Shown here one piece after another: positions 15,131 to 56,566 of a DNA stretch of 64,000 nt. How positions within the stretch are numbered: the stretch's first letter is position 1; each line of letters opens with the position of its first letter. The DNA comes from Patescibacteria group bacterium. Its GTDB lineage: Bacteria; Patescibacteriota; Dojkabacteria; J137. A program made the translations under genes and the position numbers. The stretch covers positions 267,569 to 331,568 of the forward strand of contig BOLA01000001.1 of assembly GCA_016861265.1 (NCBI GenBank). The letters are read 5' to 3'. Under the pieces are notes generated by a model. That model was not told the DNA's origin and searched no databases. It saw only the letters and a program-made list of their open reading frames with translations.

Positions 15131-15147
15131 CAGAGAGAGGGCCGTCG

Positions 15148-17445: not shown

Positions 17446-17457
17446 TTGAGTCCTTTC

Positions 17458-17473: not shown

Positions 17474-17703
17474 TTGTAAGTAAAATCCGCAAGCTATGTA
17501 CTTAATACACAATTTGCGGACTTTACGCTTAAAAGAGTTATATATACATTATATACCCCTACGCACTTATTTGCAATAAATTATGTTCTTTTAACAGCCC
17601 ACGAAAACAGGGCACAAATAGTAATAATCTGCCCAAAAGTACTAAATTCAAGTAAATCTTGTGTAAAGAAATCAATTACATTAGAATGAGATAATATGTA
17701 TCT

Positions 17704-30000: not shown

Positions 30001-30079
30001 CCAGTACAGGTGCTAGATATGTGGCAACCCACTTTGTTACCAGACATAGTCATCAACAGCTTGATTTTAATACAGAAAG

Positions 30080-30088
30080 TGATATAAT
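30080..30088 (+). promoter_or_regulatory. extended -10 TGATATAAT (with TTGATT -35 at 30061) upstream of 30127
   Basis: Read directly from the sequence. Confidence 0.45.
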
Positions 30089-30126
30089 AATTATATACGC
30101 ACATATACAAAAAAGGAAGTGTCGCA

Positions 30127-30600
30127 ATGAAGTTCGAAATGATTCACTACACTGTACAGATCGTCCGTCATGGTGGCGGAACCCAAGAGGTTCTAGCTGA
30201 CGCCGCTCATCTGCCTATCGTCCCGACAAAGGGCGATCTGGTGGAAACGGAAAACGGAGGATTTTTTCGGGTGAAGCACAACATCGGCGGAAATCGCCAG
30301 CTCGTGCTCGATGGCGGCCGATATCAGATCACCGGCTTCTTCTCCAAAGATGGAGCTGGCGTTGTGATTCGCCCCAGCGGTCGTATCGAAGGTGTTAAGG
30401 CGCAACCTACGGGCAAGCTCGTTGGTTTTGATGCCGCCTTGCCTGCGGGGAACCTCGTGAACGTCGACGGCAAGTACCTGATGATCGTCGAACGCATCAT
30501 CTCATCGCAAGGGGTGACCCTTGTGGTCGATGACCTCGAGCGAGACGTCCTCACGGGCGAGCCCGAACTGCAGGGCGTGGTAATGCGTTACACGTTCTAG
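30127..30600 (+). CDS. hypothetical protein (GC-rich island E)
   Basis: 157 aa, about 60% GC, strong SD AAAAAGGAAG. Confidence 0.5.
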   Translation: MKFEMIHYTVQIVRHGGGTQEVLADAAHLPIVPTKGDLVETENGGFFRVKHNIGGNRQLVLDGGRYQITGFFSKDGAGVVIRPSGRIEGVKAQPTGKLVGFDAALPAGNLVNVDGKYLMIVERIISSQGVTLVVDDLERDVLTGEPELQGVVMRYTF

Positions 30601-30614
30601 TCTGTGCGCAAGAG

Positions 30615-30650
30615 GGCGCTGGAAACAAATCCAGCGCTCTTAAGCTTTTT
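30615..30650. terminator. bidirectional terminator between convergent genes
   Basis: GCGCTGGA-aacaaa-TCCAGCGC followed by TTAAGCTTTTTATT. Confidence 0.6.
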
Positions 30651-31506
30651 ATTCTCCTCTGTAAGCTTTTTCTAATTCCTCAACAATAATCTTTTTTTGT
30701 CCCAACATACACTGGTTAACTCTCTGTACCTTTTCTTGATCTGGATCACTGCTTAACTCCATTAGTCTTTTAGGAATTATCTGCCAAGATACTCCAAATT
30801 TATCCTTTAACCAACCACATTGGCTTTCTTCACCACCATCTTTTACTAAGTTATCCCATAGGTAATCAACTTCTTGTTGATCTTTACAATCTACAAACAA
30901 CGAAATACCTTCATTAAACTCAAATTTATGATCCATAGAACTATCCATTACAACGAATTCCTGACCAGCAATTGTAAAAGGACCGTGGTTTAACCTACCT
31001 TTATCAGGGCCTTCAGCATATCTACTTAATTCACCTACTTTTGAGTCTTTAAACAAAGAAGTATATAGTTTTATTGCCTCTTCTGCTCTACCCGCATTCT
31101 CTTTTACAAATAGTAAACATGGAGTAATTTTTTGCTCGGCTTCTCCAACCATAATTTGCCAAGATACGCCAAACTTATCTTCTAACCATCCATATTTTTC
31201 TGAAAAGTCGTATTTGCCGTATTCCATTAAAACACTTGCTCCTTCAGATAATTTACCCCAATATTCATCGGCTTCCTGCTCATTTGCACAAGCTACCATA
31301 AACGAAATTGACGGGTTAATTTTAAATGCTGGACCTGCATCCATTCCTTGAAACTCAAATCCTTCTAGTGCAAAGTCTGCCACCTTAACTTCTGGTGTTA
31401 GGGCTGTAACATGGTGTATTTTTGAATTTTTGAAGATCGACACATAAAAATTGGCTGCCTGTTCTACTTGGTTATCGAACCAAAGAAATGGTGTAATTTT
31501 TTGCAT
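30649..31506 (-). CDS. tandem PhnB-like VOC (glyoxalase-fold, 3-demethylubiquinone-9 methyltransferase-like domain) protein
   Basis: Two copies of ..ITP.LWF......A..FY...F......V....F.L.G..F......SF.V.C..Q.E.D..W..L....CGWLKDKFGVSWQI. Confidence 0.75.
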   Translation of the reverse strand: MQKITPFLWFDNQVEQAANFYVSIFKNSKIHHVTALTPEVKVADFALEGFEFQGMDAGPAFKINPSISFMVACANEQEADEYWGKLSEGASVLMEYGKYDFSEKYGWLEDKFGVSWQIMVGEAEQKITPCLLFVKENAGRAEEAIKLYTSLFKDSKVGELSRYAEGPDKGRLNHGPFTIAGQEFVVMDSSMDHKFEFNEGISLFVDCKDQQEVDYLWDNLVKDGGEESQCGWLKDKFGVSWQIIPKRLMELSSDPDQEKVQRVNQCMLGQKKIIVEELEKAYRGE

Positions 31507-31651: not shown

Positions 31652-32110
31652 TTATTTACTTGCGTTGTATTTTTTTAATGCAACTTCAAGAATTTGATCG
31701 TGGTCAAAAGCCAGTGGCTTTGGTAATTTATTTAAATCAAACCACTCTGCTTCTGTGGTGTCGTTATCGGCACCATCTTGTGGTTTTAAATCAGATAATT
31801 CATCGGTAACTATTAAATATGCAATAGAAACAACTCTTTTTCTTGGGTCTCTATTAACTTTTCCAAAAGCTTGAATTTGTTCAATGTGCTTTGCAGTTTT
31901 AAAGCCAGTTTCTTCTTCGAGTTCTCTTAATGCTGCATCTTCTAGTTCTTCATGGTCATGTACAAATCCACCGGGAATAGCCCACTGACCTTCGAATGGT
32001 GCATACTTTCTTTTAATTAAAAGCAAATATTTCGCATCCTTTTGTTCAGATATTACAACAATATCTACTGCAACTTTAAGTTCTTGTAAGTCAATAACGA
32101 ATTTTTTCAT
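31652..32110 (-). CDS. NUDIX hydrolase
   Basis: Nudix box GGFVHDHEELEDAALRELEEETG. Confidence 0.85.
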   Translation of the reverse strand: MKKFVIDLQELKVAVDIVVISEQKDAKYLLLIKRKYAPFEGQWAIPGGFVHDHEELEDAALRELEEETGFKTAKHIEQIQAFGKVNRDPRKRVVSIAYLIVTDELSDLKPQDGADNDTTEAEWFDLNKLPKPLAFDHDQILEVALKKYNASK

Positions 32111-32114
32111 ATTA

Positions 32115-33218
32115 TTAATTAAAAGTTAATTTATAACCTTTGTTATATAAAGTTACTATATCTATATTATAACCAGATTGTTTTAGTTTTTTTCTTAATC
32201 TAGACATTCTTTGCTCAATAGCCCATTCAGAATATTTTTCATCAACTTGATCACCCCAAATAATCTTAGCCATCTCTTCCTTAGAAACTTCGGGATTTGC
32301 GTGCATATATTCAATCATTGTTTTTTCACTTTTTGTGAATAAATCAAAATTGATATTAAGTTTATTATCTTGAGTAACAGTTTCTTGTTTAATTTTGTAA
32401 TTAATTAGTTTTTCTTTAATAGCTGGCACTGAAATATCACCATTAACTATAAAGCCTACTTTTTCGTACATTTCTACAATTTCTTGTTCATGTCTGTTCA
32501 ATTTCATTTTATTTATAACTTTTTTGAAGGTACTAATTTCTTCTATAGTCATGTTGTCCAGTAAATACCCTATAAAGTTATCTAGATGTTGGCTTCCTAG
32601 TAAAATGTCTCTATACATTCTTTTAAAAGTACCAAAATGAGTATTTGTTTTTGCAAATATCTCTTCTAGTGTTTTAGTTTCGATTGGCTCAGGTTTTTTT
32701 AGTAATTGTCTGATAATCGAATCTTTATCCCATGTACCTATTTTAAAGTAGATAATTGCATCGAATATACTCGATGACACAGGGAATGCTTTTGTAAATT
32801 TATCTTCAATATTTGGAGTTTCAATTAAGTATATAAACTTAACTCTATTTTTATATTTTTTAATTAATCCATCGATAGATGCTACTAATTTATAGGCGTC
32901 ACCATAAATTTCGATGTCATCAATTAATACTACAATTTCGTACCCTTCTTTTAGGGATTCTAATAAACCAGTACCAAATTTATCCTTTTTTCTAAGTTCA
33001 ATATCTATACAATTTTCAAGTGAGTCGATATCAGTATCCTTTAAAGACTGAGTAGATATGTAAATAAACGCATATTGTGCGTCGTAATTTTGAGGATTTT
33101 GATCTAGGTTGTCTAAAATATCATATAAATTACTAATTCCATCATCTGGAAAGCTTAATATAGTAGGACTAACCCCCATATTTAAGTAATTTACAATCTT
33201 TTTTATATCTTGCTCCAT
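32115..33218 (-). CDS. protein with C-terminal OmpR/CadC-type winged-helix DNA-binding domain and uncharacterised N-terminal domain
   Basis: C-terminus IIWGDQVDEKYSEWAIEQRMSRLRKKLKQSGYNIDIVTLYNKGYKL matches trans_reg_C; no receiver domain or P-loop. Confidence 0.5.
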   Translation of the reverse strand: MEQDIKKIVNYLNMGVSPTILSFPDDGISNLYDILDNLDQNPQNYDAQYAFIYISTQSLKDTDIDSLENCIDIELRKKDKFGTGLLESLKEGYEIVVLIDDIEIYGDAYKLVASIDGLIKKYKNRVKFIYLIETPNIEDKFTKAFPVSSSIFDAIIYFKIGTWDKDSIIRQLLKKPEPIETKTLEEIFAKTNTHFGTFKRMYRDILLGSQHLDNFIGYLLDNMTIEEISTFKKVINKMKLNRHEQEIVEMYEKVGFIVNGDISVPAIKEKLINYKIKQETVTQDNKLNINFDLFTKSEKTMIEYMHANPEVSKEEMAKIIWGDQVDEKYSEWAIEQRMSRLRKKLKQSGYNIDIVTLYNKGYKLTFN

Positions 33219-33273
33219 ACTTATGGATTTTGTATTAAATATATAACAATTATATCACCAAAGGCCACTTAAT

Positions 33274-35187
33274 TCAATTTGTGTTATCCGTTCCTGGTAA
33301 CCCAATATTAACTGCTGGAAGAAATATTTTTTCTAAAAACAGCAGTGTTGCAATACCCCTATAACCTTCATCCCAGAAAGTTCCTGAGTAATCAATTAGA
33401 TTCGAATGCTCAGTCTGGACCTGCTTAGCTCCAGGGTAAAATCGCTTATAACCTTTATGCATTAGTCTACATTGTAATATATCCATTTCTAATTGCCTTA
33501 AAAATTGAGTTCGAATTTGTGGTTCTTCTACTCCAAATCTATTTAAATTAAAGTATTTCGATATTATATTTGAATAAATATCTCTTAACTCCGGGCAACC
33601 ACCTATCCATAAACTATTCATTAATATATGAACTTCTAAAGGTCCAAGAATATTTTCTTCTCTTGGAACATCTCTGAAACCATAAATGCCATTATGTTTA
33701 TATAGCCAGAATTCAAGAATTTTATCAATGCCGTTTATCTCAGGGATAGTTTGCCTTAACAAATCCATTATCTCAGAACGTTTTTCCCATGGAGTTTCTG
33801 GCTTAAAGAAAATTGCCATATCTATATCTGAGTTTGTACCTGCATATCCTTTTAGCCTTGAACCAAAACCAATAACAAATGGATAAACATATTTTGAGAG
33901 CTCATAGCTTTGCTCTATTCTTTTTGCAACAATTGCTAATAATTTAAAGTCCTTATTTATTAATTGTTCACTACTGACTGCTTGGGCTTGGGATAAATCT
34001 GTTAATTGGAGTCCCAAATTTGTAAGATACTCTTTAGGAACTACATTTAATCTGACTAGATAATTTAATCCCGTAATAATTGCATCTCTAACTTCACCTT
34101 GAGCATTTTGAAAACTATTCTCAATGATTACTCTATAGGTTTGAAATAATCCTTTAGCATCTTCTAAATTTAAATATGATATTCTTTCTGCTGCGGTAAA
34201 AATTGATTTAATTGCTACAATTAAAAAAACATTATCAAAACCCTCCATTAGTGCAATCGATTGTAGGTCTAGATTTGTACTTAATAACTGACTAGCAATT
34301 TCATTAACTGCACTATTAATTATTTGCTCTCTTGAAACTTGCTTCTCCCATTTTGCTCTCGCTCTAGAAATCGTTCTAGCGTAATCAGAATTTAAATCAT
34401 ATTTATTTTCTAAGCTTATTAAGTCGAATTCTAAATGCTTAATTATTTCTTCTAAAGTTTTTGGAACTTCTAACTGAGGCAGTTGTGAAGTAATGTTTTC
34501 ACCTAACAGACTTCTAAAAAGCATGCCTATTATTGGTTTACGGCTAGACATTTCAGTTATTAAATCAATATAAACATCGTCTAGTATTCCGCTATAAGAA
34601 GCAGTCAGCATTCCTTCGAGTATTGATTTTATTAATTCTTCTTCTTGCGATATTTCTAATAGTTCAATTAGTAATTCCGGTTTAATTATTGTAAGTTTGA
34701 GAAATATTGGAATTAAATGAGCTATTTTTCTTACTCGCTCAGGAATTCCCAATCCAGGTTCTAGAACATCACCATCTACAAAGTTTGCTCTTATGTCACT
34801 TTCGTGAAGTAATCTTATAAATCCAATTTCGATTAGTTCTTTTAATCTAGTCTGCAAATTAAATAACTCATGTTCGAAAAGAGAATATGGAAAATATAGA
34901 AGTATTCTAGAGTTATTTGTATCGAGTTCTAAAAAATCAGCTAGTTGAGTGTATAATGATAGTAATTCCTCTGATGTTACTTCTTGTTGTAAAGATTTTT
35001 TATGTAGAATACTTCTCAAATTACTTGAAAAACTCTCTCTTTGCAAAGCCTGGTCAACTAAATCTGGATTTATCGTAATATCAGTTGGCAATAAATCATT
35101 AGTTAAATAATTTTGAGTTGTTAAAGGTTCAATTAAATGTACAGAACCTACACCTTCTATATTTTTAATTAGATCTGATTGATTCAT
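33274..35187 (-). CDS. large nucleotidyltransferase (Pol-beta superfamily) with about 430-aa N-terminal helical region
   Basis: GFGSRLKGYAGTNSDIDMAIFF equals the GS-x9-D-x-D NTase signature; stop/start overlaps the upstream PurA-like gene. Confidence 0.6.
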   Translation of the reverse strand: MNQSDLIKNIEGVGSVHLIEPLTTQNYLTNDLLPTDITINPDLVDQALQRESFSSNLRSILHKKSLQQEVTSEELLSLYTQLADFLELDTNNSRILLYFPYSLFEHELFNLQTRLKELIEIGFIRLLHESDIRANFVDGDVLEPGLGIPERVRKIAHLIPIFLKLTIIKPELLIELLEISQEEELIKSILEGMLTASYSGILDDVYIDLITEMSSRKPIIGMLFRSLLGENITSQLPQLEVPKTLEEIIKHLEFDLISLENKYDLNSDYARTISRARAKWEKQVSREQIINSAVNEIASQLLSTNLDLQSIALMEGFDNVFLIVAIKSIFTAAERISYLNLEDAKGLFQTYRVIIENSFQNAQGEVRDAIITGLNYLVRLNVVPKEYLTNLGLQLTDLSQAQAVSSEQLINKDFKLLAIVAKRIEQSYELSKYVYPFVIGFGSRLKGYAGTNSDIDMAIFFKPETPWEKRSEIMDLLRQTIPEINGIDKILEFWLYKHNGIYGFRDVPREENILGPLEVHILMNSLWIGGCPELRDIYSNIISKYFNLNRFGVEEPQIRTQFLRQLEMDILQCRLMHKGYKRFYPGAKQVQTEHSNLIDYSGTFWDEGYRGIATLLFLEKIFLPAVNIGLPGTDNTN

Positions 35188-36734
35188 TAAGCTTCTATTT
35201 CTTTATCTGAATTATCGGTTTTCCAACCGCCTGTTCTTGAAAGTAAAGCTTCATGGCCCTTTCGAATCCTTCTATCAGAAGCTTTTGGGCCGTGAGAAGT
35301 AGCAACAACATTTACTTTTAAGTTCTCCTCTACATATTCTAAAAATACTTGCTCCAAACTTTTATCTTCGGTAGCAACCAAAGTTCTTAATACTGGTTTA
35401 CATTGTTTAAGTAATTCAGTTAACCTAACTTGATGGTTATAGTGTTTTTCATCTTGAGTATTAGCAACAACTTTTATTGCTTTTATTACGCCATCTTCAA
35501 TAACAAAATAATCTTCAAGATCATCTGCAATCCCGTCGAATATATAAGCTTCACAAACCTGCCACTCACTGAATTGATTTAAAACATCTAAATAACTTAT
35601 TATTAATCCGTCGTATGTATTTGCTCCACCGCTAATCGCTAAGGAATACTGCATTGCAACCAAATCGTATTGACCATTCTTAAAATCACCTAGCCAATCA
35701 TTACCTGTATTATTATGAGTTTCGTGTATGGCACTAGACATTTCAGGACTAAAGCTAACAAGAGGTCCTGCACCATGCCTAGTCATGTAGCATCTTGAAA
35801 CTCCTAATCTAATAACCTTTCCTGAGTAATTTTTTGTTTCCAGAGTTTCCAGTAAATCTGAAGACGTTGGATCAATTTGTGTAGTGTGCGGTATAAATCC
35901 ATACCAAGGATGTAATAAAGAACCGTGTGAAGGTTCGGTTACAATTGCTCCTTCTTGATTTAGAATTCCAGTAAATTGTTCGTCATTAGAAATTTGAACA
36001 AGTGCTGCTAAGCATTCAAAAGATTCAACAGTTGCTACTACTAAACTTGTACTATTTAAAATTTTCATTTCTGAATAAACTTCGTCAGGCAATTCTTCAA
36101 TTCCCATATCACTTATAATTTGGATTGCTTGCTGTAGTTTATGCTGTCTAATTGCCTCTACTTTTCGCATTAAATAATCTGTTCCAAGGCTAAATTCAGC
36201 AGCAGTTATTCCTAAATCAGGAGAAGTCCTTGAATCTTTTATAGCATCACCAACTCCTTTACCTACTGTTCCTTTTTTTTGATCTCTTAATCTTTCTTTG
36301 AATCTACTAAATGCTCCATGAAAGGGAGTTACGGTTAAACAGTTTCCGTCAATTGAGATTAAATCCAATGGATTTGCAATACCTTTTGCTTCAAGTTCTA
36401 AAGCTTCCGTAAATAAATCCACAGGGTTAATAACCATGTGAGTTAAATGTGTTTTTGCACCTTCAAAAGTCCCACAACCAAAATGAGAAAACATTTGTTC
36501 GGTTCCATCTTCGTTAATAATGTGATGACCAGCCTGAGAACCACCTGTTCTTAAAACAGTGTGGGCATTTAAAAGTTGAGTTAACCATTGTACCGTTGCA
36601 CCTTTAGTTTCCTCACCAATACCTAGACCATTAATTACTACAATCTCCGAATTATTTTTTACTCCATCCATATTATTAAATTTAAAGTTATTCCTTTTCG
36701 TCCTTTTGGACTCATCAGTTTTGATACACATCAA
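35187..36734 (-). CDS. divergent adenylosuccinate synthetase (PurA/PurZ)-family protein; true start probably 36671
   Basis: PurA motifs present but altered: GEETKGA (for GDEGKGK), GGSQAGHH (GG.NAGH), GTVGKGVGDA (GTT..GIGP.Y); the Met at 36671 gives the canonical short N-terminus. Confidence 0.65.
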   Translation of the reverse strand: MMCIKTDESKRTKRNNFKFNNMDGVKNNSEIVVINGLGIGEETKGATVQWLTQLLNAHTVLRTGGSQAGHHIINEDGTEQMFSHFGCGTFEGAKTHLTHMVINPVDLFTEALELEAKGIANPLDLISIDGNCLTVTPFHGAFSRFKERLRDQKKGTVGKGVGDAIKDSRTSPDLGITAAEFSLGTDYLMRKVEAIRQHKLQQAIQIISDMGIEELPDEVYSEMKILNSTSLVVATVESFECLAALVQISNDEQFTGILNQEGAIVTEPSHGSLLHPWYGFIPHTTQIDPTSSDLLETLETKNYSGKVIRLGVSRCYMTRHGAGPLVSFSPEMSSAIHETHNNTGNDWLGDFKNGQYDLVAMQYSLAISGGANTYDGLIISYLDVLNQFSEWQVCEAYIFDGIADDLEDYFVIEDGVIKAIKVVANTQDEKHYNHQVRLTELLKQCKPVLRTLVATEDKSLEQVFLEYVEENLKVNVVATSHGPKASDRRIRKGHEALLSRTGGWKTDNSDKEIEA

Positions 36735-36793: not shown

Positions 36794-37957
36794 TTAGAAC
36801 TTCGACCAGTCGAAGGGCTTACGTGGCGGGCGCGGGGTCGAAACATCTTCTTCCGCCTCCCCACTTTCGAAGACAGCCTGACCTTCCGCCTTGGGGTGAC
36901 CAATCGGCCAGGCATGGCGATAATTCTCGAACTCATCCCCGGGCTTCGGCATGACACCGAAGTTGGGCAAACGAGTCTGAGCGCCGGCATCGATCTTGGC
37001 GACTTCCAGCGCGTACCAGATTGCGTTGGCATCGCGCTGCGAAATCGGCTGGTTCGTACCGCGCGTTGTCTCGATCAGGAAATCAACCAAACGCTGCTGC
37101 GTCACGCCGACGTTCTCGGTGATGTAGATGATCGCAACCTGAGTTTCAGCGATCAGGTCAGCATTGGGGACAAGGACAACGCGTCCTTTACCCAAAGTGC
37201 TTTCCCAGAAGCTGGTCACGTGGTTGCGTGTTGCTGCTTGACCACCACGCGCCACCTGAAGGTAGAACGTGTGCCACGCCTTATTCAGGCTGCGGGCGAG
37301 ATCACTGGTCTTGGTCGTGGATTGCAGACCAATCCCCAAGTGCAGCATTGCTGCTTCCTTGGTGATGCTGCCGCGACCTTCTTGGTCACCGACAATCATC
37401 ATGTAGCCTTTGAGGCCGTACATGGTATAGATGTCGGTCTGGACAGCGCGATCAACGTAGGCGAGCGCCATGTCGTAGTCTTCAACCGGATCGCCGCCGC
37501 TTTCCGCTGCGAGCAGAAGACGAAGCTGTTCAGCAATCCGATTGTCGGACTCGAACTGAGTCTGTTGATAGACCGGTTTGCTGTCGTCAACGTCCTGAAC
37601 CACTGCGGATGAGAGCTGCATGTTGTAGCGCTCCCGGGCGAAACCCAGCATGTCGTAGATCGTGCCAAGCTCAAAGAAAGCCTTGCCCACGTTCTCGCCC
37701 ATGCTGGCAGTACCGTCGAATACCGTGAGCAACGGCATCGCCGGGCCATTCTTGAGGATGGTCTTGTCGCCTTCACGCACCAAAGCGTTACGCGACTTAC
37801 GGGTCTTGCCATTGATGTCCACCAACGGATCGACCTTACCGGTTGCGCGGAAAACACGATCACCGACCTCGTGTACCGTCTCACGACGGGCTTTCATGGT
37901 GGCGACCGTTTCTTCGAACTTGGCACTGCTGAAGGTTGCGACGTCTGTTGTACGCAT
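36794..37957 (-). CDS. vWA-like (MIDAS D-x-T-x-S) domain protein (GC-rich island F)
   Basis: LLTVFDGTASMGE; about 58% GC. Confidence 0.45.
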   Translation of the reverse strand: MRTTDVATFSSAKFEETVATMKARRETVHEVGDRVFRATGKVDPLVDINGKTRKSRNALVREGDKTILKNGPAMPLLTVFDGTASMGENVGKAFFELGTIYDMLGFARERYNMQLSSAVVQDVDDSKPVYQQTQFESDNRIAEQLRLLLAAESGGDPVEDYDMALAYVDRAVQTDIYTMYGLKGYMMIVGDQEGRGSITKEAAMLHLGIGLQSTTKTSDLARSLNKAWHTFYLQVARGGQAATRNHVTSFWESTLGKGRVVLVPNADLIAETQVAIIYITENVGVTQQRLVDFLIETTRGTNQPISQRDANAIWYALEVAKIDAGAQTRLPNFGVMPKPGDEFENYRHAWPIGHPKAEGQAVFESGEAEEDVSTPRPPRKPFDWSKF

Positions 37958-38020
37958 GATTGTTGTCTCTGCTTTCTTGGATTTGTTTTAGATTCGGATT
38001 GAGTTGGGCGAATGCCTGAG

Positions 38021-38938
38021 TTACAGGCTGTAGGTCACGAACTGGTGAAAATCACGCTTAAAACGATCAGTACCTTCGATGGGCTTTTTGGGCCAGAAGA
38101 TATCTGCCTGTGCGTAGATGATGCTGTGCTCAGCACCAGCGCCGTCGGTGCTTCCGTCCATAATGCGACGGAGCGAGTCAATGTACTGCGTGTGGTGTTC
38201 AGCCGAAAGGAGCGCTGCATCGTGAGGGGGATTGTTGTCCCCGCCGCCCACAGCATTCCACAGCATTTTCGCTGCGGCCGAAACTTCCGCCATACATTCT
38301 GATTTGCTGGCGTCCTCGTTCGCTTCTGAGAAGTCGAGGACAAAGACACCGTGAACATCCTTTTCGATCAGGACGTTCGTGGCGTCGACCATGCCAACAG
38401 TGAAGCCCAGCGAGTGGACAAAGTCCAAAAGCTTGAGCAACTTGCCCAGCACCCACGTGCCGGTCTTGAGATCGATGCGCTGACCGTCAAGCACTCGCGC
38501 CAGCGGGAAAAGCTGTTTGTATGTGTTGATGCTCGGGTGGTAACCCAAGACCATCACAAAACGCCCATCTTCACCCACGAACGAATCGAGTAATGTCGGG
38601 AAAAGCGCTCCGTAGTTCAGCGGATTCTCGCCCCGGCCGACCGCTTCCGCATCCAAGTCCGTCGCGATCTGCTGCAAAGTGCGCAGAATACGCGATTCGG
38701 TTTCGAGGATGTGGTTGAGGTCGACGGTTGCAGCGATCTTCATCAGCCCCATTTGTCCCGAAGGGAGTTTGGCAACATAGAGCTTCCAGCTTTCGGTGGT
38801 GACCAATGCGGTGCCGCCGATGCTGAAAATTTCGTAAGTGCCATTCGCGCCGTCGATTTCGGTCATGCTCGTAAGAGCCGACCCCGAAGTTGAGTCATCA
38901 CCAACTGGTGCAGTCCCGAGAAATTCCTTGTCGTCCAT
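38021..38938 (-). CDS. protein-kinase-like fold protein with atypical catalytic loop (GC-rich island F)
   Basis: GLMKIAAT (VAIK-like), VGMVDATNVLI (catalytic-loop-like, D-x2-N not D-x4-N), VLDFSEA (DFG-like). Confidence 0.4.
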   Translation of the reverse strand: MDDKEFLGTAPVGDDSTSGSALTSMTEIDGANGTYEIFSIGGTALVTTESWKLYVAKLPSGQMGLMKIAATVDLNHILETESRILRTLQQIATDLDAEAVGRGENPLNYGALFPTLLDSFVGEDGRFVMVLGYHPSINTYKQLFPLARVLDGQRIDLKTGTWVLGKLLKLLDFVHSLGFTVGMVDATNVLIEKDVHGVFVLDFSEANEDASKSECMAEVSAAAKMLWNAVGGGDNNPPHDAALLSAEHHTQYIDSLRRIMDGSTDGAGAEHSIIYAQADIFWPKKPIEGTDRFKRDFHQFVTYSL

Positions 38939-39511: not shown

Positions 39512-40786
39512 ATGAATCATCAAAACACAAGCACAATCTGGGACGTAATAGTAATTGGCGCAGGTCCAGCCGGCCTTATGGCTGCAGGTCGAGCTGCTGA
39601 GCGTGGTAAAAGCGTACTACTATTAGAAAAGAATCCATACATAGGTAAAAAACTTTTAATTACAGGTGGTGGCGGATGCAACGTTACAAACAATAAACCA
39701 GAAGTACAACAATTAGTTAATAGCTACAAAGGTTCCCCTAAAGCTCTCTACTCTGTTTTTAGTCAATTCGATGTTACAAATACTTTAGAGTTTTTCCATA
39801 ACAAAGGAATGCCTACTAAATTAGAAGCAGAAGGCAGAATATTCCCTGAAAGTAACAAGGCTCAATCTGTTTGGAATGTTTTAAATGAATACATTACAAC
39901 AAACAAAGTTACATTAAAAACAAATGCTGTAGTTACAGGAATAACTTTAAACGAAGATAAAACTTTTAAAATTAAACTAGTTAACGATGCTGTTGTTGGC
40001 AAAGCATGCATTGTTGCAACTGGTGGAACTAGTCACCCAGAAACAGGTTCCACTGGTGATGGTTTTAAATGGTTAAAACAATTAGGGCATACAATTAATC
40101 CTAATTCATTTTCTTTGGTACCAATTGCATTAAAAGAAACCTGGGTTAAAGATGTTAGCGGTATAGCATTAGAAGATGCAGTTATTCGTGTTTATTTAGA
40201 TGGTAAAAGACAAGCACATAAACAAGGTAAAATCTTGTTTACTCATTTTGGATTAAGTGGACCAGCTGTTTTAAATTTGAGCAGTCAAATTGGTGAACTA
40301 CTACAGTATGGCAATGTAAGTTTAGAAATTGATTTACTACCGCAATACGATAATGGAATGTTAAAAACAGAACTATTCAATGTACTTACTACAGATATAA
40401 ATAAGAAGATTAAAAATACATTGAATAATTTAATTGCTAGTGGATTAGTTTTAACTGTATTAAAGTTAGCAAACGTGGATACAGACAAAGCCAACAATAG
40501 TATTACAAAAGAAGAACGTTTACGTTTAGCACAAATATTAAAAGCAATTCCAGCTAATGTTAAACATTTACTTGGTGCCGATAAAGCAATTGTAAGTTCC
40601 GGTGGAGTTGATATTAACGAAGTTGATTTTAAAACAATGCAATCTAGATTAATACCAAACCTATATATTATTGGGGATTTATTAGATATTGATAGACCAA
40701 GTGGTGGTTATAGTTTGCAGTTGTGCTGGAGTATGGGGATGGTGAGTGGGGGCCTATTTAAAAGTTGCAAGCTGAGGTATTTTTAG
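39512..40786 (+). CDS. HI0933/BaiN-family FAD-dependent flavoprotein
   Basis: VIVIGAGPAGLMAAGRAAERGKSVLLLEKN, GGGGCNVTN, typical about 420-aa length. Confidence 0.85.
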   Translation: MNHQNTSTIWDVIVIGAGPAGLMAAGRAAERGKSVLLLEKNPYIGKKLLITGGGGCNVTNNKPEVQQLVNSYKGSPKALYSVFSQFDVTNTLEFFHNKGMPTKLEAEGRIFPESNKAQSVWNVLNEYITTNKVTLKTNAVVTGITLNEDKTFKIKLVNDAVVGKACIVATGGTSHPETGSTGDGFKWLKQLGHTINPNSFSLVPIALKETWVKDVSGIALEDAVIRVYLDGKRQAHKQGKILFTHFGLSGPAVLNLSSQIGELLQYGNVSLEIDLLPQYDNGMLKTELFNVLTTDINKKIKNTLNNLIASGLVLTVLKLANVDTDKANNSITKEERLRLAQILKAIPANVKHLLGADKAIVSSGGVDINEVDFKTMQSRLIPNLYIIGDLLDIDRPSGGYSLQLCWSMGMVSGGLFKSCKLRYF

Positions 40787-42157
40787 AAAAATAATACCTC
40801 TGGCAATCATAATATTGTCTTTTATAACATAACATTCCACATAATGATCTCCAATGTATGCAATTTGTTCTTTACGTATTTTGGTGCCATCATCTTCCCA
40901 AATTTGACCCCTTAACTTCTTAGCATATTTACCTGTATTTCTAATTTTCCAGAAAATTTGAACTGGATCATATGTACTTATGACTTCATTATCTTCTATA
41001 TAATATTCTAAGTTTGCTGATCTTCTAAAAAACGTGACTTCAGATAAAAGAGTAGGGTTTGGATTCCCATTTTGAGTCACTATTGCATTGAGTTTTATTT
41101 TTAGTAAATTAGGACTTACACTAAATCCTTTTTCTTCTATAAACTGCTCAACATCCGATGGAAAGTTCTTCACAGCCCAAGAGATGAAGGAATGGAAAGC
41201 CATCGAAATCGGATAACTTTTAATTGATTCATCGTCTTCAATTACCTTAAATTGATCACCAAATATTTGATTCCATTTCTTGGAACTTTCAACTACATCC
41301 TGCAAATCTAGGGCCTCTTTTGCGATATTAAGTGATTCATCTACTATTCTCATAAACTTCTTAAATTCGTCTAAAGACATTGAGATTTTTAAATATTCGC
41401 CCTCTAAACCTGGATCTTTAAGTTCTGGGATTGATGACAATGTCTCGAAGTTACTATATTTATTAGATATAGATTCTAGAACACTTGTAAATAATTCAGC
41501 ATAAGTATCTTTAGCTTGGAAATTATCCCCTACTAAAAACTCAATCCAGAATCCTTTCGGTTGCGGTTTTTTTACTTTTGAATTTAGTTTCCACCAATAC
41601 TTAAAAATCTTCACCAATGGGACGAACATTTCTTTACTTTTTTCCAATGAATTTAAGTTAGAAGTGTATTCAGTATGTGCCTTTGGATGACTATAGACCC
41701 ATTTACTTAGTTCCTTATCTGGAATTAATAGCTTACTGTCTCCATCAGTTTCAACTACTGTAGGTAGGACATCTAGAGTCATCTCAACATCTGGGTGTTC
41801 GGGCAATGCTTGCTTTACTTTTACAGATTTACGGGAATACTCAAGATTATCTGCATCCTCATAATGTTCATTCAAGCTTTTCTTCAACTTTGCTAACACT
41901 TTAGCAGGTGTATTTTCTTCTTTGGATGGATCAAAATCAGTAAGAATCGCGATATCAATATCTTTAATATCCCCTACTGCGGTATGTCTCTTATAAGAAC
42001 CATATAGAAATGATCCAATAACATTTTCTGCAATAGTAGCATCATTCTCAAGATGTTCTCGAATAGTTGAATGTGCCTCTTTTGCAAAATTTTTTTGTTC
42101 TGGATCTGGTTCAATATTTGTTAAAAAATCATCAAAGCAAGTATTAAGAGTTGCCAT
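40754..42157 (-). CDS. CD-NTase-like (SMODS) cyclic oligonucleotide synthase with about 130-aa C-terminal extension
   Basis: GSFLYGSYKRHTAVGDIKDIDIAIL (GS..R.TA...D.D), third Asp in MTLDVLPTV, KGFWIEFLV helix. Confidence 0.55.
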   Translation of the reverse strand: MATLNTCFDDFLTNIEPDPEQKNFAKEAHSTIREHLENDATIAENVIGSFLYGSYKRHTAVGDIKDIDIAILTDFDPSKEENTPAKVLAKLKKSLNEHYEDADNLEYSRKSVKVKQALPEHPDVEMTLDVLPTVVETDGDSKLLIPDKELSKWVYSHPKAHTEYTSNLNSLEKSKEMFVPLVKIFKYWWKLNSKVKKPQPKGFWIEFLVGDNFQAKDTYAELFTSVLESISNKYSNFETLSSIPELKDPGLEGEYLKISMSLDEFKKFMRIVDESLNIAKEALDLQDVVESSKKWNQIFGDQFKVIEDDESIKSYPISMAFHSFISWAVKNFPSDVEQFIEEKGFSVSPNLLKIKLNAIVTQNGNPNPTLLSEVTFFRRSANLEYYIEDNEVISTYDPVQIFWKIRNTGKYAKKLRGQIWEDDGTKIRKEQIAYIGDHYVECYVIKDNIMIARGIIFLKIPQLATFK

Positions 42158-42158
42158 A

Positions 42159-43529
42159 TTAAAAAGTACTATTTGTAATTATTGTTGCACGCTGATATAT
42201 TTCTCTATCCGCACCCAAAAAATATACATGGAGCTTTGCATTAAGAGAATCTAGTTTGTGTCCCGCCATTAGCGAGATAGGTTTAGGAATAGCCAAAAAT
42301 AAATGTATATCTTTGATTCCCCAACTTTGAATCTCCATAATAGAATTAGACAATTCTTTTGCTACAATTGAAGCATGCGCGGAGTTTGAAACTCTTCCAT
42401 CCACAATGTATTTATGTACTATATATTTTATTGTAGGAAAGTTTCTGTCATTTATATTTTTTAAAACAATATCTTTTAAGTCTTTTCGACCAACAGCATC
42501 AAAGATTAGTACAGCTTCTGTAGAACTATTATCTATTATTAAAGGTTCTTGTGATTTTATTCTTGATTCTACAGCTGGAGTATCCTCTTCAACACTACTC
42601 CACAATTGTTTTTTGTAGATTACCTTGAATTGGATTCTATTTTTTCTAAAAGCTAGGCCTAGTTGAAACGCAAGGGAAATCTCAATATCTGTATAGATTA
42701 TTATATTTTCGTACATGGATGTAGACTTTATAATTTCTACCAAAGCTTTTATAGATTCGATAATTTTCCTATTCCTATCTTCTAACTGTTCTTTGCTTAC
42801 GTAAAAATCCTCGAAGTACACTGTTAAATCAACTACCTGATCAAAAGTTGAATTTTTCTGTGTGGTTACTCCTAAGTAAAGTGTTCTCGGTTTTACTGAA
42901 GTAACTTTTTTAAATATATTTTGGGTTTGATTAAGTTCTAGTAGTATTTCCTTTATTTTTTCTTTTTCATTTAGAATTTCTTTAGAAGTTTTCAAGATTG
43001 TCTTCCTAGTAAGCACATTCAAGTCAGAAATTTTAAGATCAAAAAATTTGTCAGTAGGAAGATTCTTTGAATAATATTTATACACTAGATCGGGATAATT
43101 ATCTAAAGAACTCATTAAATCACTCCAAAAAACGGGCGTTACCATACTCTGTCCCTGAGCTAATCTATTCTTACTTAAAGCCAAGCACATTGAAGTTATT
43201 TTCGAATCACTCGCAGCACTAGTTACATAATAAAAATTGTTTAACTTAATACCTGCCTTCTTAAGCTTTTCTAAACTTTCTGTTATATCAGCTTCCATTA
43301 CCGATTGAATCTTATTAGTTGGAACATCTAAATGATTTTTGCATTGAATGCCCTCAATTTCGTTAGTTCCAAAATTAAACCCCAAAATATCTAATCCATA
43401 TTGAGCTTGTCCTTTTCTACCAAATCTTTGTAGATTGGGATTTATGAACTTCCGTGAAAAGATATCGCAGACTAAATCTTCGAAAAAGCTATCATCTTTA
43501 AGTTTTGGTAAATCAAAGATTCCACTCAT
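42159..43529 (-). CDS. Cap4-like effector: N-terminal Mrr-like PD-(D/E)xK nuclease plus large C-terminal (SAVED-like) domain
   Basis: GLDILGFNFGTNEIEGIQCKNH resembles the Mrr_cat motif; about 330-aa C-terminal domain; directly upstream of the CD-NTase with 1-nt spacing. Confidence 0.45.
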   Translation of the reverse strand: MSGIFDLPKLKDDSFFEDLVCDIFSRKFINPNLQRFGRKGQAQYGLDILGFNFGTNEIEGIQCKNHLDVPTNKIQSVMEADITESLEKLKKAGIKLNNFYYVTSAASDSKITSMCLALSKNRLAQGQSMVTPVFWSDLMSSLDNYPDLVYKYYSKNLPTDKFFDLKISDLNVLTRKTILKTSKEILNEKEKIKEILLELNQTQNIFKKVTSVKPRTLYLGVTTQKNSTFDQVVDLTVYFEDFYVSKEQLEDRNRKIIESIKALVEIIKSTSMYENIIIYTDIEISLAFQLGLAFRKNRIQFKVIYKKQLWSSVEEDTPAVESRIKSQEPLIIDNSSTEAVLIFDAVGRKDLKDIVLKNINDRNFPTIKYIVHKYIVDGRVSNSAHASIVAKELSNSIMEIQSWGIKDIHLFLAIPKPISLMAGHKLDSLNAKLHVYFLGADREIYQRATIITNSTF

Positions 43530-43577
43530 ATTGAATTTGTATTATTTCTGTAAATCATAACATTCGTATACCAAATC

Positions 43578-43591
43578 TTGTCCATAGACAA
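43578..43591. promoter_or_regulatory. Palindrome TTGTC-CATA-GACAA in divergent promoter region (Cap4-like gene vs ABC-F gene)
   Basis: Read directly from the sequence; an extended -10 TGTATAAT lies at 43616-43623 (+). Confidence 0.3.
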
Positions 43592-43749
43592 ATTTTGCAC
43601 TCAGATAACCTTTCCTGTATAATCCCTTCATGTACATCAATACATCAACACAAATCTTCTTGCTTTCCTTCAAAGCAGCAATATTAAGCTAAGTATATTT
43701 GCACGCCTATACGATTTAGGCACTAACTTAGATTTAATATTAAAACACC

Positions 43750-45219
43750 ATGTTAAGAGTAAACAATTTATCAATAGAATTTAGTAAACAGTTATTTAAT
43801 AACATTTCATTTACCTTAGGCAACAAAGAAAAGGTTGGTCTTATAGGCCTTAATGGAACAGGCAAAACTACTCTGCTGCGCTTACTTGCAGGTCTAGAAG
43901 TTGCAGACAGCGGAAAAATAGAAATATCTAAAGATGAACACCTTGAATACTTACCTCAGGAATATTCATTTAAAGACGACTTAATGGTTGGCGAAGTTTT
44001 AGAAGAAATGATTACCAACCCTAAAACCGAAATGTTTAAGGTTACAAAAGTTTTAAACAAGCTTGGATTAACCGATATTGATTACTATGCCTTTGTTAAT
44101 ACATTAAGCGAAGGTCAAAAAATGAAGTTGTATTTAGCAAAGCTGTTAATAAACAACCCAACAATATTATTACTAGATGAACCAACTAACCACTTAGATA
44201 TTACAGGCATTAGGTGGCTTGAAGGCTTTATTAAGCAGTTCGATGGCATTTGCATTATCATTTCGCACGACAGAGTTTTTTTGAACAATGTAATTACAGA
44301 TGTATTCGAAATTGATGAACAAAAGTTAAATATATTTAAAGGTAATTACAATGATTACTTGGTTCAAAAAGCAGACTTACTAGAAAAACGTAAAACTCAA
44401 TACTTTTTGCAAGAAAAGCATCGTGAAAAACTAATTAATTTAATAGAAAAAACGCATACCTATGCAGCTGGTGAAAAGCAAAGCCGTGCCCTAAGTGCTG
44501 CAAAGCACAGACTTATTCGAGAAGTTTTAAGTAAAGAAATAAGTGAATACAAGGAACAAAAAATATCTGATATTGAAATTGCAGGATCTGTACATAAATC
44601 TAAACAGATTATTAAAATTAGGAATTTAAATTTTTGTTACGGCAATAATGCAATTGTTAAAGATGCAAACTTTGATATGTATGGTAAAGAGAAAATCTGG
44701 CTTGTTGGCGCAAATGGAACTGGTAAAACTACACTAGTAAAATTAATACTTGGTAAGTTAAAGCCAGATTCAGGGGAAATAAAACTGGGAGATAATTTAA
44801 AGTGGGCATATTTTTCGCAGGATCAATCGCATTTAGATATGAATGCAACTGTAGAAGATTTCTTTTTAACCAATACAGGTATTAGTTACAATCAATCATT
44901 TAATGTAATGGCAAAATTCTTGTTTGGCAAAGAACAACGTACAACTAAAATTAAAAATTTAAGTCCTGGGCAAAGAGCCAGATTATCTTTTGCAGTGTTC
45001 AGTTTAAAGGAATATGACTTTATGATTTTAGACGAACCAACTAATCATATAGATATAAAATCAAAAGAAGTTATAGAAGAATCTTTAAATAATTACAAAG
45101 GTTCAATATTTGTTGTATCTCACGATAGATACTTTGTAAAAAACATTGGAGTAACAAGAGCAATAACGTTAAACAATAATAAAATTGCTGAAGTTAAGAA
45201 TATTGAGGATGAATTTTGA
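43750..45219 (+). CDS. ABC-F family ATPase (second copy)
   Basis: GLNGTGKTTLL / LSEGQKMKL / LLLDEPTNHLD and GANGTGKTTL / LSPGQRARL / ILDEPTNHID. Confidence 0.85.
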   Translation: MLRVNNLSIEFSKQLFNNISFTLGNKEKVGLIGLNGTGKTTLLRLLAGLEVADSGKIEISKDEHLEYLPQEYSFKDDLMVGEVLEEMITNPKTEMFKVTKVLNKLGLTDIDYYAFVNTLSEGQKMKLYLAKLLINNPTILLLDEPTNHLDITGIRWLEGFIKQFDGICIIISHDRVFLNNVITDVFEIDEQKLNIFKGNYNDYLVQKADLLEKRKTQYFLQEKHREKLINLIEKTHTYAAGEKQSRALSAAKHRLIREVLSKEISEYKEQKISDIEIAGSVHKSKQIIKIRNLNFCYGNNAIVKDANFDMYGKEKIWLVGANGTGKTTLVKLILGKLKPDSGEIKLGDNLKWAYFSQDQSHLDMNATVEDFFLTNTGISYNQSFNVMAKFLFGKEQRTTKIKNLSPGQRARLSFAVFSLKEYDFMILDEPTNHIDIKSKEVIEESLNNYKGSIFVVSHDRYFVKNIGVTRAITLNNNKIAEVKNIEDEF

Positions 45220-45239
45220 AAGGAATAATTTGTTGCAGG

Positions 45240-45275
45240 ACCTCCGTTCCTACAACAAATATTGCTTGAACAGAA
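45240..45275. terminator. hairpin between convergent genes
   Basis: TTTGTTGCAGGA-cctccgt-TCCTACAACAAA, 12-bp stem with one mismatch. Confidence 0.4.
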
Positions 45276-45284
45276 ATCCTGCTA

Positions 45285-46019
45285 TTACCGATCGGGCTTG
45301 GGGTGCCACAGAGGGCGCACCACGCCGCGGTAAACCGCGAGCCCGAAAATTGCCACTGCAATGACTAACCAAATGGTCGCCCACTGGTTGCCATTCAAGA
45401 ACGGGTACAGCTGAGAAAACTGGACCGCATCGTTATGGTGGTCCTGTCGCGACAGCTGCTCCAGAGCGCGTAATCCGTTAATGGCGTCCAGCGCAACGTA
45501 CGCCGATAACACGTTGATTAAGCCTACCCCTATGTGCCACGGCAAGTACTTGCTCACCAGAAAGACCACTACTGACAGTACGACCGCCACGATCACCGTG
45601 AGCTGAGTGCCGGTTGCTTGGTCGGGTTGCGCGTAAGTCAAGGCGAACAACCCCATAACAATCCCCACCCCGAACGCCACAACGGCGCCCCACTGGTAAC
45701 GATTGTTGAAATAGAACACAACCGACCCAATCAGAGCCGAACCCAGATAGCCTGCAGGCAGAATTAACGTCCACCATCCACCGGCGGACTGAACGTATCC
45801 ACCGCCGTCGGAACCTACGACTAGCGCCATCACACGGCCACCAGTAATCCAGGTGGCAAATGCGTGGCCAAACTCATGAACCAACACCTGCACAAAGTGC
45901 AGACTCCGATTAACCACGAACATGTTACTGTCCGTGACAATCAGGTGCAGAACAACCGCCACAAGGACGGTCACCGACGCCATGATAACAGCGTAGGATT
46001 TATTCGTCGGGTAACGCAT
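45285..46019 (-). CDS. M50B-like membrane metallopeptidase (HExxH) (GC-rich island G)
   Basis: HEFGH within a TM protein; about 56% GC; extended -10 TGATATAAT at 46060-46068 and SD AAAGGAG. Confidence 0.55.
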   Translation of the reverse strand: MRYPTNKSYAVIMASVTVLVAVVLHLIVTDSNMFVVNRSLHFVQVLVHEFGHAFATWITGGRVMALVVGSDGGGYVQSAGGWWTLILPAGYLGSALIGSVVFYFNNRYQWGAVVAFGVGIVMGLFALTYAQPDQATGTQLTVIVAVVLSVVVFLVSKYLPWHIGVGLINVLSAYVALDAINGLRALEQLSRQDHHNDAVQFSQLYPFLNGNQWATIWLVIAVAIFGLAVYRGVVRPLWHPKPDR

Positions 46020-46087
46020 TATAACGATAGCTCCTTTTCAACGAACTCGGTATATAGTAATTATATCATTTGCAGAGTAAATATTAA

Positions 46088-46113
46088 AGCGCAATAAAGC
46101 CCGCCTTGCGGCG
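46088..46113 (-). terminator. rho-independent terminator after 46139-46516
   Basis: AAGCCCGCC-gcaa-GGCGGGCTT then TTATTGCGCTTTAAT on the minus strand. Confidence 0.6.
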
Positions 46114-46138
46114 GGCTTAGTGTAACTTTAATTCAGCT

Positions 46139-46516
46139 TTATGCTGCCTCTTCTGTCTTTTCTGATTCTTGAATGTCTTCTACTTTAGCTACAATTTCTT
46201 CGAATGCCTTTTGTGCTCTCTTTTTTACTGGAGCTAATTTATTATATACAGATGGAGCTTTTGGCTCTAACATCTTTAAAATTTTGCCTAATTTATAGTT
46301 AATCTCGTCTAGTTGTCTTTGTAAGTTCATGTCACCAAAGCTACCATCTCTTCTTTGATTGCTGCCTTGCATTCTTTCAAAACAGTCACTGCAGAATACT
46401 GGCTTATTACTTGTTGGTTTGAATGGAACTTTACATTTTCTGCCGCATTCATCGCATATAGCGTCAAACATTTCTCTTGGCTCTCTTGAAGGTGCTCTGT
46501 CGTAATGATCTCTCAT
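46139..46516 (-). CDS. CxxC..CxxC zinc-ribbon protein with coiled-coil C-terminus
   Basis: FDAICDECGRKCKVPFKPTSNKPVFCSDCF. Confidence 0.55.
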   Translation of the reverse strand: MRDHYDRAPSREPREMFDAICDECGRKCKVPFKPTSNKPVFCSDCFERMQGSNQRRDGSFGDMNLQRQLDEINYKLGKILKMLEPKAPSVYNKLAPVKKRAQKAFEEIVAKVEDIQESEKTEEAA

Positions 46517-56167: not shown

Positions 56168-56566
56168 TTAATTATAAATTAAAAATTGCTCGGCAAGCTT
56201 AAGTAGTTCGCCCTTTAAAAACTGACCTTCTACTAAATAATTTACATCGTCTTTATTTAGGTTTTCTAGAAATCCAAGATACACTAAAGTATCATAATAA
56301 TTTATATTCAAGCTTAAGAGACCCTCTAAAAAACTAATCACATTTTCTCTAACCAAATTATTATTTTTATATAAACCTGTAAAAAAGACCGCTAACTCAC
56401 TTATCAGCAGATAAGGAATAACCTCATTATAAGTTTGAGTATGTTCAATAAGTTCCCTGTTAAACTCTGGAATAGAGTTCTCTATTGTTCGTCTTAAATA
56501 TTCGCCCGGAAATCTATTTGATAAAGTTTTGTTTATATTATTCATTTGGTTTACATTTAAAAGCAT
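56168..56566 (-). CDS. candidate cognate immunity protein of the Rhs toxin
   Basis: Starts 29 nt before the Rhs gene stop on the same strand (classic toxin-immunity arrangement). Confidence 0.45.

Follow-up and report, generated by a model that had tools for sequence, protein, structure and literature searches.

Identification of a two-gene CBASS locus

We analyzed a stretch of 64,000 nucleotides (from now on referred to as the window) of a Patescibacteria group bacterium (GTDB lineage Bacteria; Patescibacteriota; Dojkabacteria; J137), corresponding to positions 267,569 to 331,568 of the forward strand of contig BOLA01000001.1 (assembly GCA_016861265.1), and focused on two adjacent minus-strand genes which we interpret as a minimal cyclic-oligonucleotide-based antiphage signaling system (CBASS). 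The first open reading frame (ORF) of the pair (42159..43529, minus) encodes a 456 aa effector combining a putative Mrr-type PD-(D/E)xK nuclease domain with a SAVED domain, while the second (40754..42157, minus) encodes a 467 aa cyclase consisting of a nucleotidyltransferase of the cGAS/DncV-like group (CD-NTase), SMODS type, and an AGS-C domain. Both ORFs and the cyclase motifs quoted in an earlier interpretation of the bare nucleotide letters (the sequence-only reading) were found to be present exactly as described there. A single base separates the TAA stop codon of the effector gene from the ATG of the cyclase gene (TAA-N-ATG). As stop codon, single base and start codon directly adjoin, the two genes form one operon, transcribed together with the effector first, and are probably translationally coupled.

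The effector carries a SAVED domain and resembles Cap4 in overall fold

The C-terminal part of the effector is a SAVED domain (aa ~195-437; 42219..42947, minus), a predicted cyclic-oligonucleotide receptor recognized by NCBIfam, Pfam and fold comparison alike. The NCBIfam SAVED model matches residues 195-436 (E=2.1e-17, 63.5 bits vs a cutoff of 33), the Pfam SAVED model matches residues 274-437 (E=4e-12) and several PADLOC SAVED models match as well, in agreement with the SAVED domain proposed for this part of the protein by the sequence-only reading. PADLOC models of endonuclease effectors cover only the SAVED part. A full-length AlphaFold2 model based on 15 homologues reached a mean predicted local distance difference test score (pLDDT) of 85.6. 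Used in a fold search, it returned Cap4 chains at ranks 1-13 (E=1e-12 to 6e-10, about 490 columns aligned), the top matches being Cap4 from A. baumannii, E. cloacae and M. osloensis with both domains aligned. The Cap4 matches 6vm6 and 6wan are structures with cyclic trinucleotides. Cap4 was followed in the ranking by TIR-SAVED bound to cA3, Cap5 and CHAT-SAVED. Generally, full-length Mrr-SAVED effectors are rare, with about 20 clusters at 90% identity among 5.8 billion proteins. Searches of 72,556 plasmid and 50,697 phage records gave no match to the full-length effector; there, the N-terminal domain alone does match at about 30% identity.

Cap4 (DUF4297 nuclease-SAVED; 6vm6, 6wan, 7yib) shares with the window effector a PD-(D/E)xK nuclease followed by a C-terminal SAVED domain in a protein of about 450 aa, is its best full-length fold match (E=1e-12) and also pairs with a CdnD-type cyclase. 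Sequence identity between the two is about 10-12%, however, and the phmmer match (E=0.16) is confined to SAVED. Further, no match to a Cap4/DUF4297-type nuclease model was obtained at E<=10 for the effector, its N-terminal 200 aa or 8 family members, and the window nuclease domain, unlike Cap4's own nuclease, falls into the Mrr_cat/Mrr_cat_2 neighborhood. The earlier description of the effector as Cap4-like holds for architecture and overall fold but does not extend to family membership, the Cap4 nuclease domain being undetected: the protein resembles Cap4 in its architecture and probably in its mechanism but lies outside the Cap4 family in the strict sense.

The N-terminal domain is a putative Mrr-type nuclease

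The N-terminal domain of the effector (N-domain; aa 1-160; 43050..43529, minus) contains the candidate catalytic residues E17, D47, Q62 and K64. Across 22 diverse homologues, F16, E17, G45, D47, Q62, C63 and K64 are invariant. In the model, E17 is located on a helix (13-27), D47 just before a β-strand (48-52) and Q62/K64 on a further strand (57-64), and this predicted E...D...QxK placement fits the canonical PD-(D/E)xK layout with its αβββ core. Weak Pfam matches to Mrr_cat, below threshold, could be detected in four of eight close relatives (best E=1.3e-3), with RRG7 matched in two. A profile of the N-domain aligns with residues 6-155 of the homologue P0139 with an hhalign probability of 99.8% (E=3.6e-29), and P0139 itself passes the gathering scores of Mrr_cat (PF04471) and Mrr_cat_2 (PF13156) with 29.8 bits. 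Both scores are also passed by P0174, P0179 and P0184, in which the domain is fused to STAND.

The isolated N-domain was modeled with a pLDDT of 91.8, and its top fold ranks are, at weak significance, almost all PD-(D/E)xK nucleases, including EcoO109I, the nuclease domains of Can2 and Card1, the N-terminal nuclease of Avs4, BstEII, Shedu and Mus81. Avs4 (8dgf) resembles the window effector in carrying an N-terminal PD-(D/E)xK module that is presumed to be activated by oligomerization (TM 0.47 and 18% identity to the window N-domain). It differs in that there is no sequence-level match to the window N-domain and in that its module is driven by a STAND ATPase rather than a SAVED ligand sensor. 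Judged by motif and homology, the N-domain is likely an Mrr-like PD-(D/E)xK nuclease, an assignment that is well supported but short of proof.

An exhaustive profile search showed that the N-domain alone is very common, with 4,692 representative clusters at E<=1e-3, of which 3,233 reach E<=1e-10, and that it is almost always N-terminal, in proteins of 150-1,550 aa. The architectures sampled combine it with TIR and SAVED, with NACHT/NB-ARC and TPR/HEAT (STAND/Avs-like) or with TPR and PIN; the likeness to STAND/Avs systems thus includes the N-terminal position of this domain family in NACHT/NB-ARC-TPR proteins. In two proteins, P0009 and P0160, the N-domain is found together with TIR and SAVED in a single polypeptide, placing two candidate effector domains on one sensor, and in P0192 it comes after HD-CE, GGDEF and TIR. 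Such a distribution is typical of a transferable effector module of conflict systems.

The cyclase is a CD-NTase with an AGS-C domain

The product of the second gene is a SMODS CD-NTase, as had been suggested from its signature motifs. Pfam SMODS matches residues 4-169 (E=7.3e-24), PADLOC cyclase models match down to E=4.6e-68, and the motifs GSYKRHTAV (53-61), DIDIA (66-70), LDVLP (128-132) and KGFWIEFLV (201-209) are all present. The catalytic core (aa 1-305; 41243..42157, minus) contains G53-S54, D66-x-D68 and D129, and these five residues are invariant in an alignment of 50/50 full-length relatives. Among solved structures, the nearest by phmmer against the PDB is CdnD of B. cereus (9sa4; E=4.5e-42 and 2.8e-42 in two comparisons, collinear across residues 8-305), followed by CdnD of E. 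cloacae (7ljl; E about 1e-27), CdnC/CdnD of Type III systems (E about 1e-10) and, marginally, CdnE (0.04). The profile searches by which the sequence-only reading proposed that it be checked, for SMODS and for SAVED, both returned matches, so that it does not fall for want of either domain.

The cyclase extends about 160 residues past its core, of which residues 335-460 (40778..41155, minus) form a folded AGS-C (Ig-like) domain, recognized by Pfam PF18134 (AGS_C) with E=1.7e-24 and 86.7 bits vs a cutoff of 26.7 over profile positions 2-128 of 129. Core and AGS-C are joined by a linker (aa 306-334; 41156-41242, minus) of about 30 aa vs a family median of 15. The C-terminal extension noted earlier is therefore real but not of unknown nature. 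Nor is it unusual, as had also been claimed: according to a survey of Type I CBASS (bioRxiv 10.1101/2023.05.21.541620), AGS-C, described as Ig-like, occurs on about 40% of the CD-NTases of this type and has been tied to altered phage-family specificity. In the survey, nearly all members of clades B and H possess the domain, its occurrence in clades F and G is patchy, and clades A, C, D and E are without it. The family to which the window cyclase belongs (SMODS+AGS_C, 36-47% identity) comprises many members, with >100 clusters among the matches listed. One cyclase homologue is labeled Levyibacteriota.

An alignment of 50 full-length relatives showed no insertion the size of an activation loop in any region of the cyclase. 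According to a 2026 preprint, a cleavable loop of about 30 aa serves the CD-NTases of clades A and G, and about 18% of those of clade D, as a sensor of phage prohead proteases, and clade D enzymes without this loop give no response to the protease (PMC12991175). As the window cyclase is loop-less and loop-less clade D enzymes ignore the protease, AGS-C would, by inference, be the part of the enzyme most likely to serve in sensing or regulation.

The two closest solved cyclases both signal to effectors of the nuclease-SAVED kind, CdnD of B. cereus (9sa4) by making cA3 and CdnD of E. cloacae (7ljl) by making cAAG; the cA3 of the B. cereus enzyme activates a Cap4 nuclease (PMC13424991). The B. 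cereus enzyme differs from the window cyclase in belonging to a Type II system with Cap2/Cap3, in its length of 340 aa and in having no AGS-C. The E. cloacae enzyme shows a ~50-residue offset consistent with a protease-sensitive activation loop, which the window enzyme is without. With AGS-C-fused Type I CBASS, the window system shares the two-gene set of cyclase and effector, the lack of Cap2/Cap3 or HORMA/TRIP13 and the AGS-C domain on the cyclase. The AGS-C clades surveyed are B, H and parts of F and G, however, while the window core is nearest to clade D among solved structures.

Type I assignment and conservation of gene order

Inspection of about 8 kb on either side of the cassette, whose borders take in only the effector and cyclase genes, revealed neither Cap2/Cap3 (E1/E2/JAB) nor HORMA/TRIP13 genes, nor accessory genes of Type IV or other CBASS. 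Because Cap2/Cap3 and HORMA/TRIP13 genes are absent, the window locus is, on the evidence of its gene content, an intact Type I CBASS, and the minimal, Type I-like character first proposed for it is upheld. The Type I label reportedly follows the classification of Millman et al. 2020.

We collected 20 distinct cassettes from metagenomes and metagenome-assembled genomes (MAGs) of Gammaproteobacteria, Chloroflexota, Methanobacterium and others, and scored them with hidden Markov models built from our own alignments. The effector precedes the cyclase in 20/20 cassettes, and AGS-C is present on the cyclase in 16/20. As this order holds in every cassette, the effector-first arrangement, which the sequence-only reading had regarded as unusual, is a fixed trait of the lineage and not an anomaly. 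The founding operon, capV-dncV of V. cholerae, is likewise effector-first. A reading of the effector as a SAVED accessory protein of Type III CRISPR systems was rejected, as in 20/20 loci the effector is paired with a SMODS cyclase.

Two of the related loci show additional features. In a Caldilineaceae MAG (L023 6267-8873), an insertion of about 1.2 kb splits the cyclase gene into one part at 6267-6722 and another at 7893-8873, which suggests inactivation by a mobile element. In a Chloroflexia MAG, the Mrr-SAVED/cyclase pair has a second, divergent CD-NTase core (L022 3112-4221; E=9e-54 to our family model) about 0.8 kb upstream of it. Beyond this core, still further upstream, lies a weak S24-like ORF, and the locus may represent tandem CBASS systems.

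LexA-like genes accompany a subset of related cassettes

Directly upstream of the effector-cyclase pair, 8/20 cassettes, the window not being one of them, encode a LexA-like protein of 198-227 aa composed of LexA_DNA_bind and Peptidase_S24 domains. The eight genes are located at L004 5312-5995, L005 5294-5920 (minus), L006 5368-5964, L010 1688-2314 (minus), L015 1995-2612, L016 2055-2651, L018 ~4294-4989 and L021 ~4285-4986. Six of them are co-directional with the cassette, with gaps of 1-48 nt, and two are divergent. The encoded proteins retain the cleavage motif (A/C)-G as well as the serine of GDSM and the lysine of AT(I/L)KK. Lineage-specific promoter palindromes are common to related pairs, namely TTTCTC(C/T)ATTATGGAGAAA, TTACGC-N5/6-GCGTAA and GTCAATAAA(A/T)CTATTGAC (in the LexA-bearing relatives also written TTTCTCCATTATGGAGAAA, TTACGC-N5/6-GCGTAA and GTCAATAAANCTATTGAC). 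Within the window, a tblastn search of the entire stretch for a LexA-like remnant returned nothing below E=1, and the region upstream of the effector contains only a weak palindrome with 6-bp arms.

The known CBASS regulators CapW, CapH/CapP and CapK/CapS, which are DNA-damage-responsive, are encoded by repressor genes immediately upstream of CBASS operons. The LexA-like genes of the relatives occupy the same position, directly upstream. They differ from these regulators in that their products are predicted to be single-protein, self-cleaving repressors of the LexA/S24 type; the window has none. A literature search found no paper linking CBASS with LexA/S24.

The cassette is exchangeable cargo of a defense hotspot

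The borders of the cassette could be defined by blastn comparison with a syntenic contig of a close relative (L033), whose flanks are 93-96% identical to the window up to position 40752 and again from position 43613. The whole strain-variable cassette consequently spans 2,860 bp (40753..43612, minus) and contains both genes and an 83-nt cassette-specific leader. The intergenic region 5' of the effector gene (43530..43749, minus), where the promoter is presumed to lie, is divided by the synteny breakpoint into a cassette part (43530-43612) and a part in common with the relative (43613-43749). In the slot occupied by CBASS in the window, the relative carries an unrelated 3.8-kb segment with a methyltransferase and a ResIII/Z1 helicase. 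Because this closely related contig carries a methyltransferase/Z1-helicase system in the same slot, the CBASS segment is exchangeable cargo in a defense hotspot between two housekeeping genes. The segment of the relative (L033 2218-5838) encodes an N6_N4 methyltransferase (429 aa), a protein with ResIII/SWI2_SNF2/Z1 domains (620 aa) and a 146-aa ORF, and looks like a restriction-modification system residing in the same hotspot.

On the cyclase side, the cassette borders on an HI0933-like flavoprotein gene in convergent orientation, and on the effector side, divergent from the effector gene, on an ABC-F ATPase gene. The 3' end of the cyclase gene overlaps the flavoprotein gene by 33 nt, an overlap explained by the insertion, through which the flavoprotein acquired different final codons (424 aa vs 415 aa). 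At the cassette borders, a search for terminal direct or inverted repeats yielded only short AT-rich matches at chance level (e.g., 25 nt at 76%), and no mobility signature or mobility genes marking the boundaries were found. Effector and cyclase proteins identical to those of the window were found again on contigs from several independent samples. It should be noted that the ABC-F protein was also considered as a defense ATPase and rejected, as its PADLOC matches (mad3, AriA and others) reflect generic ABC-ATPase similarity and the gene is kept in the relative L033, which is without CBASS.

Proposed mechanism and alternative explanations

We interpret the locus as a minimal anti-phage operon of the Type I CBASS kind, which is exchangeable hotspot cargo and acts through a cyclic-oligonucleotide-activated nuclease, and assign this interpretation a probability of roughly 85%. 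The domains of both proteins are identified, the catalytic residues are intact, the two genes are strictly paired in 20 cassettes without accessory genes, and the segment is cargo. Trigger, signal identity, oligomerization, DNA substrate and abortive outcome are proposed by analogy with characterized relatives. Phage infection would activate the CD-NTase, most likely via the C-terminal AGS-C Ig-like domain, since the clade-D-like core is without a protease-cleavable loop. The activated enzyme would then make a cyclic oligonucleotide. A trinucleotide, for instance cA3 or cAAG, is the most likely product, given that the core is CdnD-like and that the best SAVED fold matches are receptors of cA3, cAAG and 2'3'3'-cAAA. 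Binding of this signal to the SAVED domain may drive oligomerization of the effector, which in turn would turn on the N-terminal Mrr-type PD-(D/E)xK nuclease. Indiscriminate degradation of DNA by the nuclease would finally abort the infection.

Several observations weigh against this interpretation. The Mrr_cat-like N-terminus recognized in the sequence-only reading is borne out by the invariant motif, the link to P0139 and the fold ranks but not by any direct family match, as a Pfam scan of the first 200 aa of the effector returned nothing even at E<=10. N-domain profiles built from 8 and 22 sequences gave only noise against PDB sequences, and the best match of the isolated N-domain in the fold search was E=9e-3, with none at E<=1e-3. 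The putative nuclease activity of the window effector rests on motif conservation and transitive homology. In addition, the TIR-bearing P0009 and P0160 indicate that the N-domain is perhaps not always the sole effector. For the cyclase, the NCBIfam CBASS_cyclase_b match (E=6.5e-30) stays under the equivalog cutoff with 104.7 vs 200 bits, and by this measure the enzyme is a divergent CD-NTase outside the named equivalogs. Its clade D affinity was gauged solely against solved structures (CdnD 1e-42 to 1e-27, CdnC 1e-10, CdnE 0.04), and, given the published absence of AGS-C from clade D, either the window family lies outside clade D proper or the survey was under-sampled. Finally, scans of the cassette for promoters and terminators performed at chance (20 promoters found vs 17.1 expected; 1 terminator found vs 1.2 expected).

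A different identity of the gene pair would follow if the nucleotidyltransferase were the minimal nucleotidyltransferase of a toxin-antitoxin pair (MNT/AbiEii-like) and its neighbor the toxin or partner, a grouping that the sequence-only reading had itself named as one that would speak against it. Weak matches of the cyclase to the Pol-beta superfamily (NTP_transf_2 E=8e-4, Polbeta E=1e-3, MntA E=0.064) point in this direction, but all of them are under curated cutoffs (MntA with 13 bits vs a cutoff of 60), and the evidence for a CD-NTase is far stronger (SMODS 7.3e-24, CBASS_cyclase_b 6.5e-30, PADLOC 4.6e-68 and CdnD 4.5e-42 over about 300 residues). The enzyme groups with CD-NTases, and the partner protein has a SAVED domain and no HEPN or AbiEi-type domain. 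We therefore consider a toxin-antitoxin pair extremely improbable. Somewhat less far-fetched, though still unlikely, is that the effector kills by other means, with the N-domain serving as a DNA-binding or oligomerization module or as an RNase and toxicity stemming from another activity or from DNA or membrane sequestration. The missing direct family match, the weak fold statistics and the occurrence of the N-domain beside TIR on the SAVED sensor of P0009 and P0160, and with PIN domains elsewhere, would be compatible with such a role. The full E...D...QxK set is, however, invariant in 22 diverse members, and a module without catalytic function would hardly account for this. Homologues score above the gathering thresholds of Mrr_cat, and Pfam, PADLOC and NCBIfam searches showed no other candidate effector domain in the window protein.

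The cassette might also be a decaying or silent remnant that was dropped into the hotspot without control elements of its own, which we regard as slightly less probable again than a different killing activity. In its favor, the LexA-like gene of 8/20 related cassettes is absent from the window and has left no remnant, no recognizable promoter or operator was found at the cassette, and the 3' end of the cyclase gene runs 33 nt into the convergent flavoprotein gene. Against it, neither ORF is truncated, every catalytic and conserved residue is intact, identical proteins recur in several independent samples, and 12/20 cassettes are also without the LexA-like gene, so that the two-gene form is normal. 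A functional Type I CBASS with a nuclease effector remains our preferred interpretation.

Implications

As a CBASS operon, the locus is mainly one more example of its kind and its direct impact is small. It is modestly new in that an Mrr-type nuclease replaces the Cap4 nuclease, that a possibly clade-D-like core carries AGS-C and that a LexA-type partner occurs, in the relatives only. A broader proposal, according to which the lineage is new in two linked ways, namely by an uncharacterized Mrr-type nuclease module and by an ancestral LexA/S24 wiring, is put forward only tentatively and appears to us more doubtful than probable.

The Mrr-type module, which is without a solved structure or a dedicated family model and comprises about 4,700 clusters at 50% identity, may constitute a shared warhead of SAVED, TIR-SAVED, STAND and TPR-PIN proteins. 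As the module recurs in thousands of conflict proteins, a single biochemical characterization of the N-domain would annotate many systems. If the LexA/S24 wiring is true, CBASS expression would be coupled directly to RecA/SOS signaling, a fourth class of regulator would stand beside CapW, CapH/CapP and CapK/CapS, and the window would represent a derived, regulator-less form. Similarly, if AGS-C is indeed found on a loop-less, clade-D-like cyclase, the distribution of AGS-C would be wider and AGS-C could be an alternative to protease-loop sensing. The compact loop-less CdnD-like cyclase with its AGS-C domain would be a clean test case for what AGS-C senses. Further, the sharp swap between CBASS and a methyltransferase/helicase system documents a defense hotspot in an uncultured low-GC organism (33% GC; contig of 1.11 Mb).

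Other features of the window

The window is a mosaic in which genes of 48-55% GC are found within a background of 33% GC, and at least two such segments are missing from the relative L033. Next to the CBASS slot, a segment (45218-46183) with a Peptidase_M50B gene of 48% GC (45285-46019, minus) takes the place of a 112-bp spacer of the relative, which is otherwise 95-96% identical, and represents another recent insertion of foreign composition. On the other side, the region 36794-38938 (minus; about 55% GC) encodes ORFs of 387 aa and 305 aa without Pfam or PADLOC match. By eye, the 387-aa product contains a vWA-MIDAS-like motif (VFDGTASMG) and the 305-aa product is kinase-like. The relative has a glycosyltransferase gene at this position instead. 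Additional 1-kb blocks of 43-46% GC are found at 10001-11000, 13001-14000, 15001-16000, 17001-18000 and 30001-31000, and their scattered distribution suggests many small foreign insertions. No rRNA, tRNA or Rfam matches were found in the window.

An unusual co-directional run of genes (31652-36734, minus) starts with an adenylosuccinate-synthetase-like protein (515 aa, TTG start), followed by a protein of 637 aa whose residues 437-480 match a Pol-beta nucleotidyltransferase domain, a protein of 367 aa with a Trans_reg_C DNA-binding domain and a NUDIX hydrolase that matches the PADLOC candidate PDC-S07 (E=8e-9). Two ORFs that are very large for what appears to be a small genome are also present, encoding proteins of 2,034 aa (18660-24764, plus) and 1,320 aa (56538-60500, minus).

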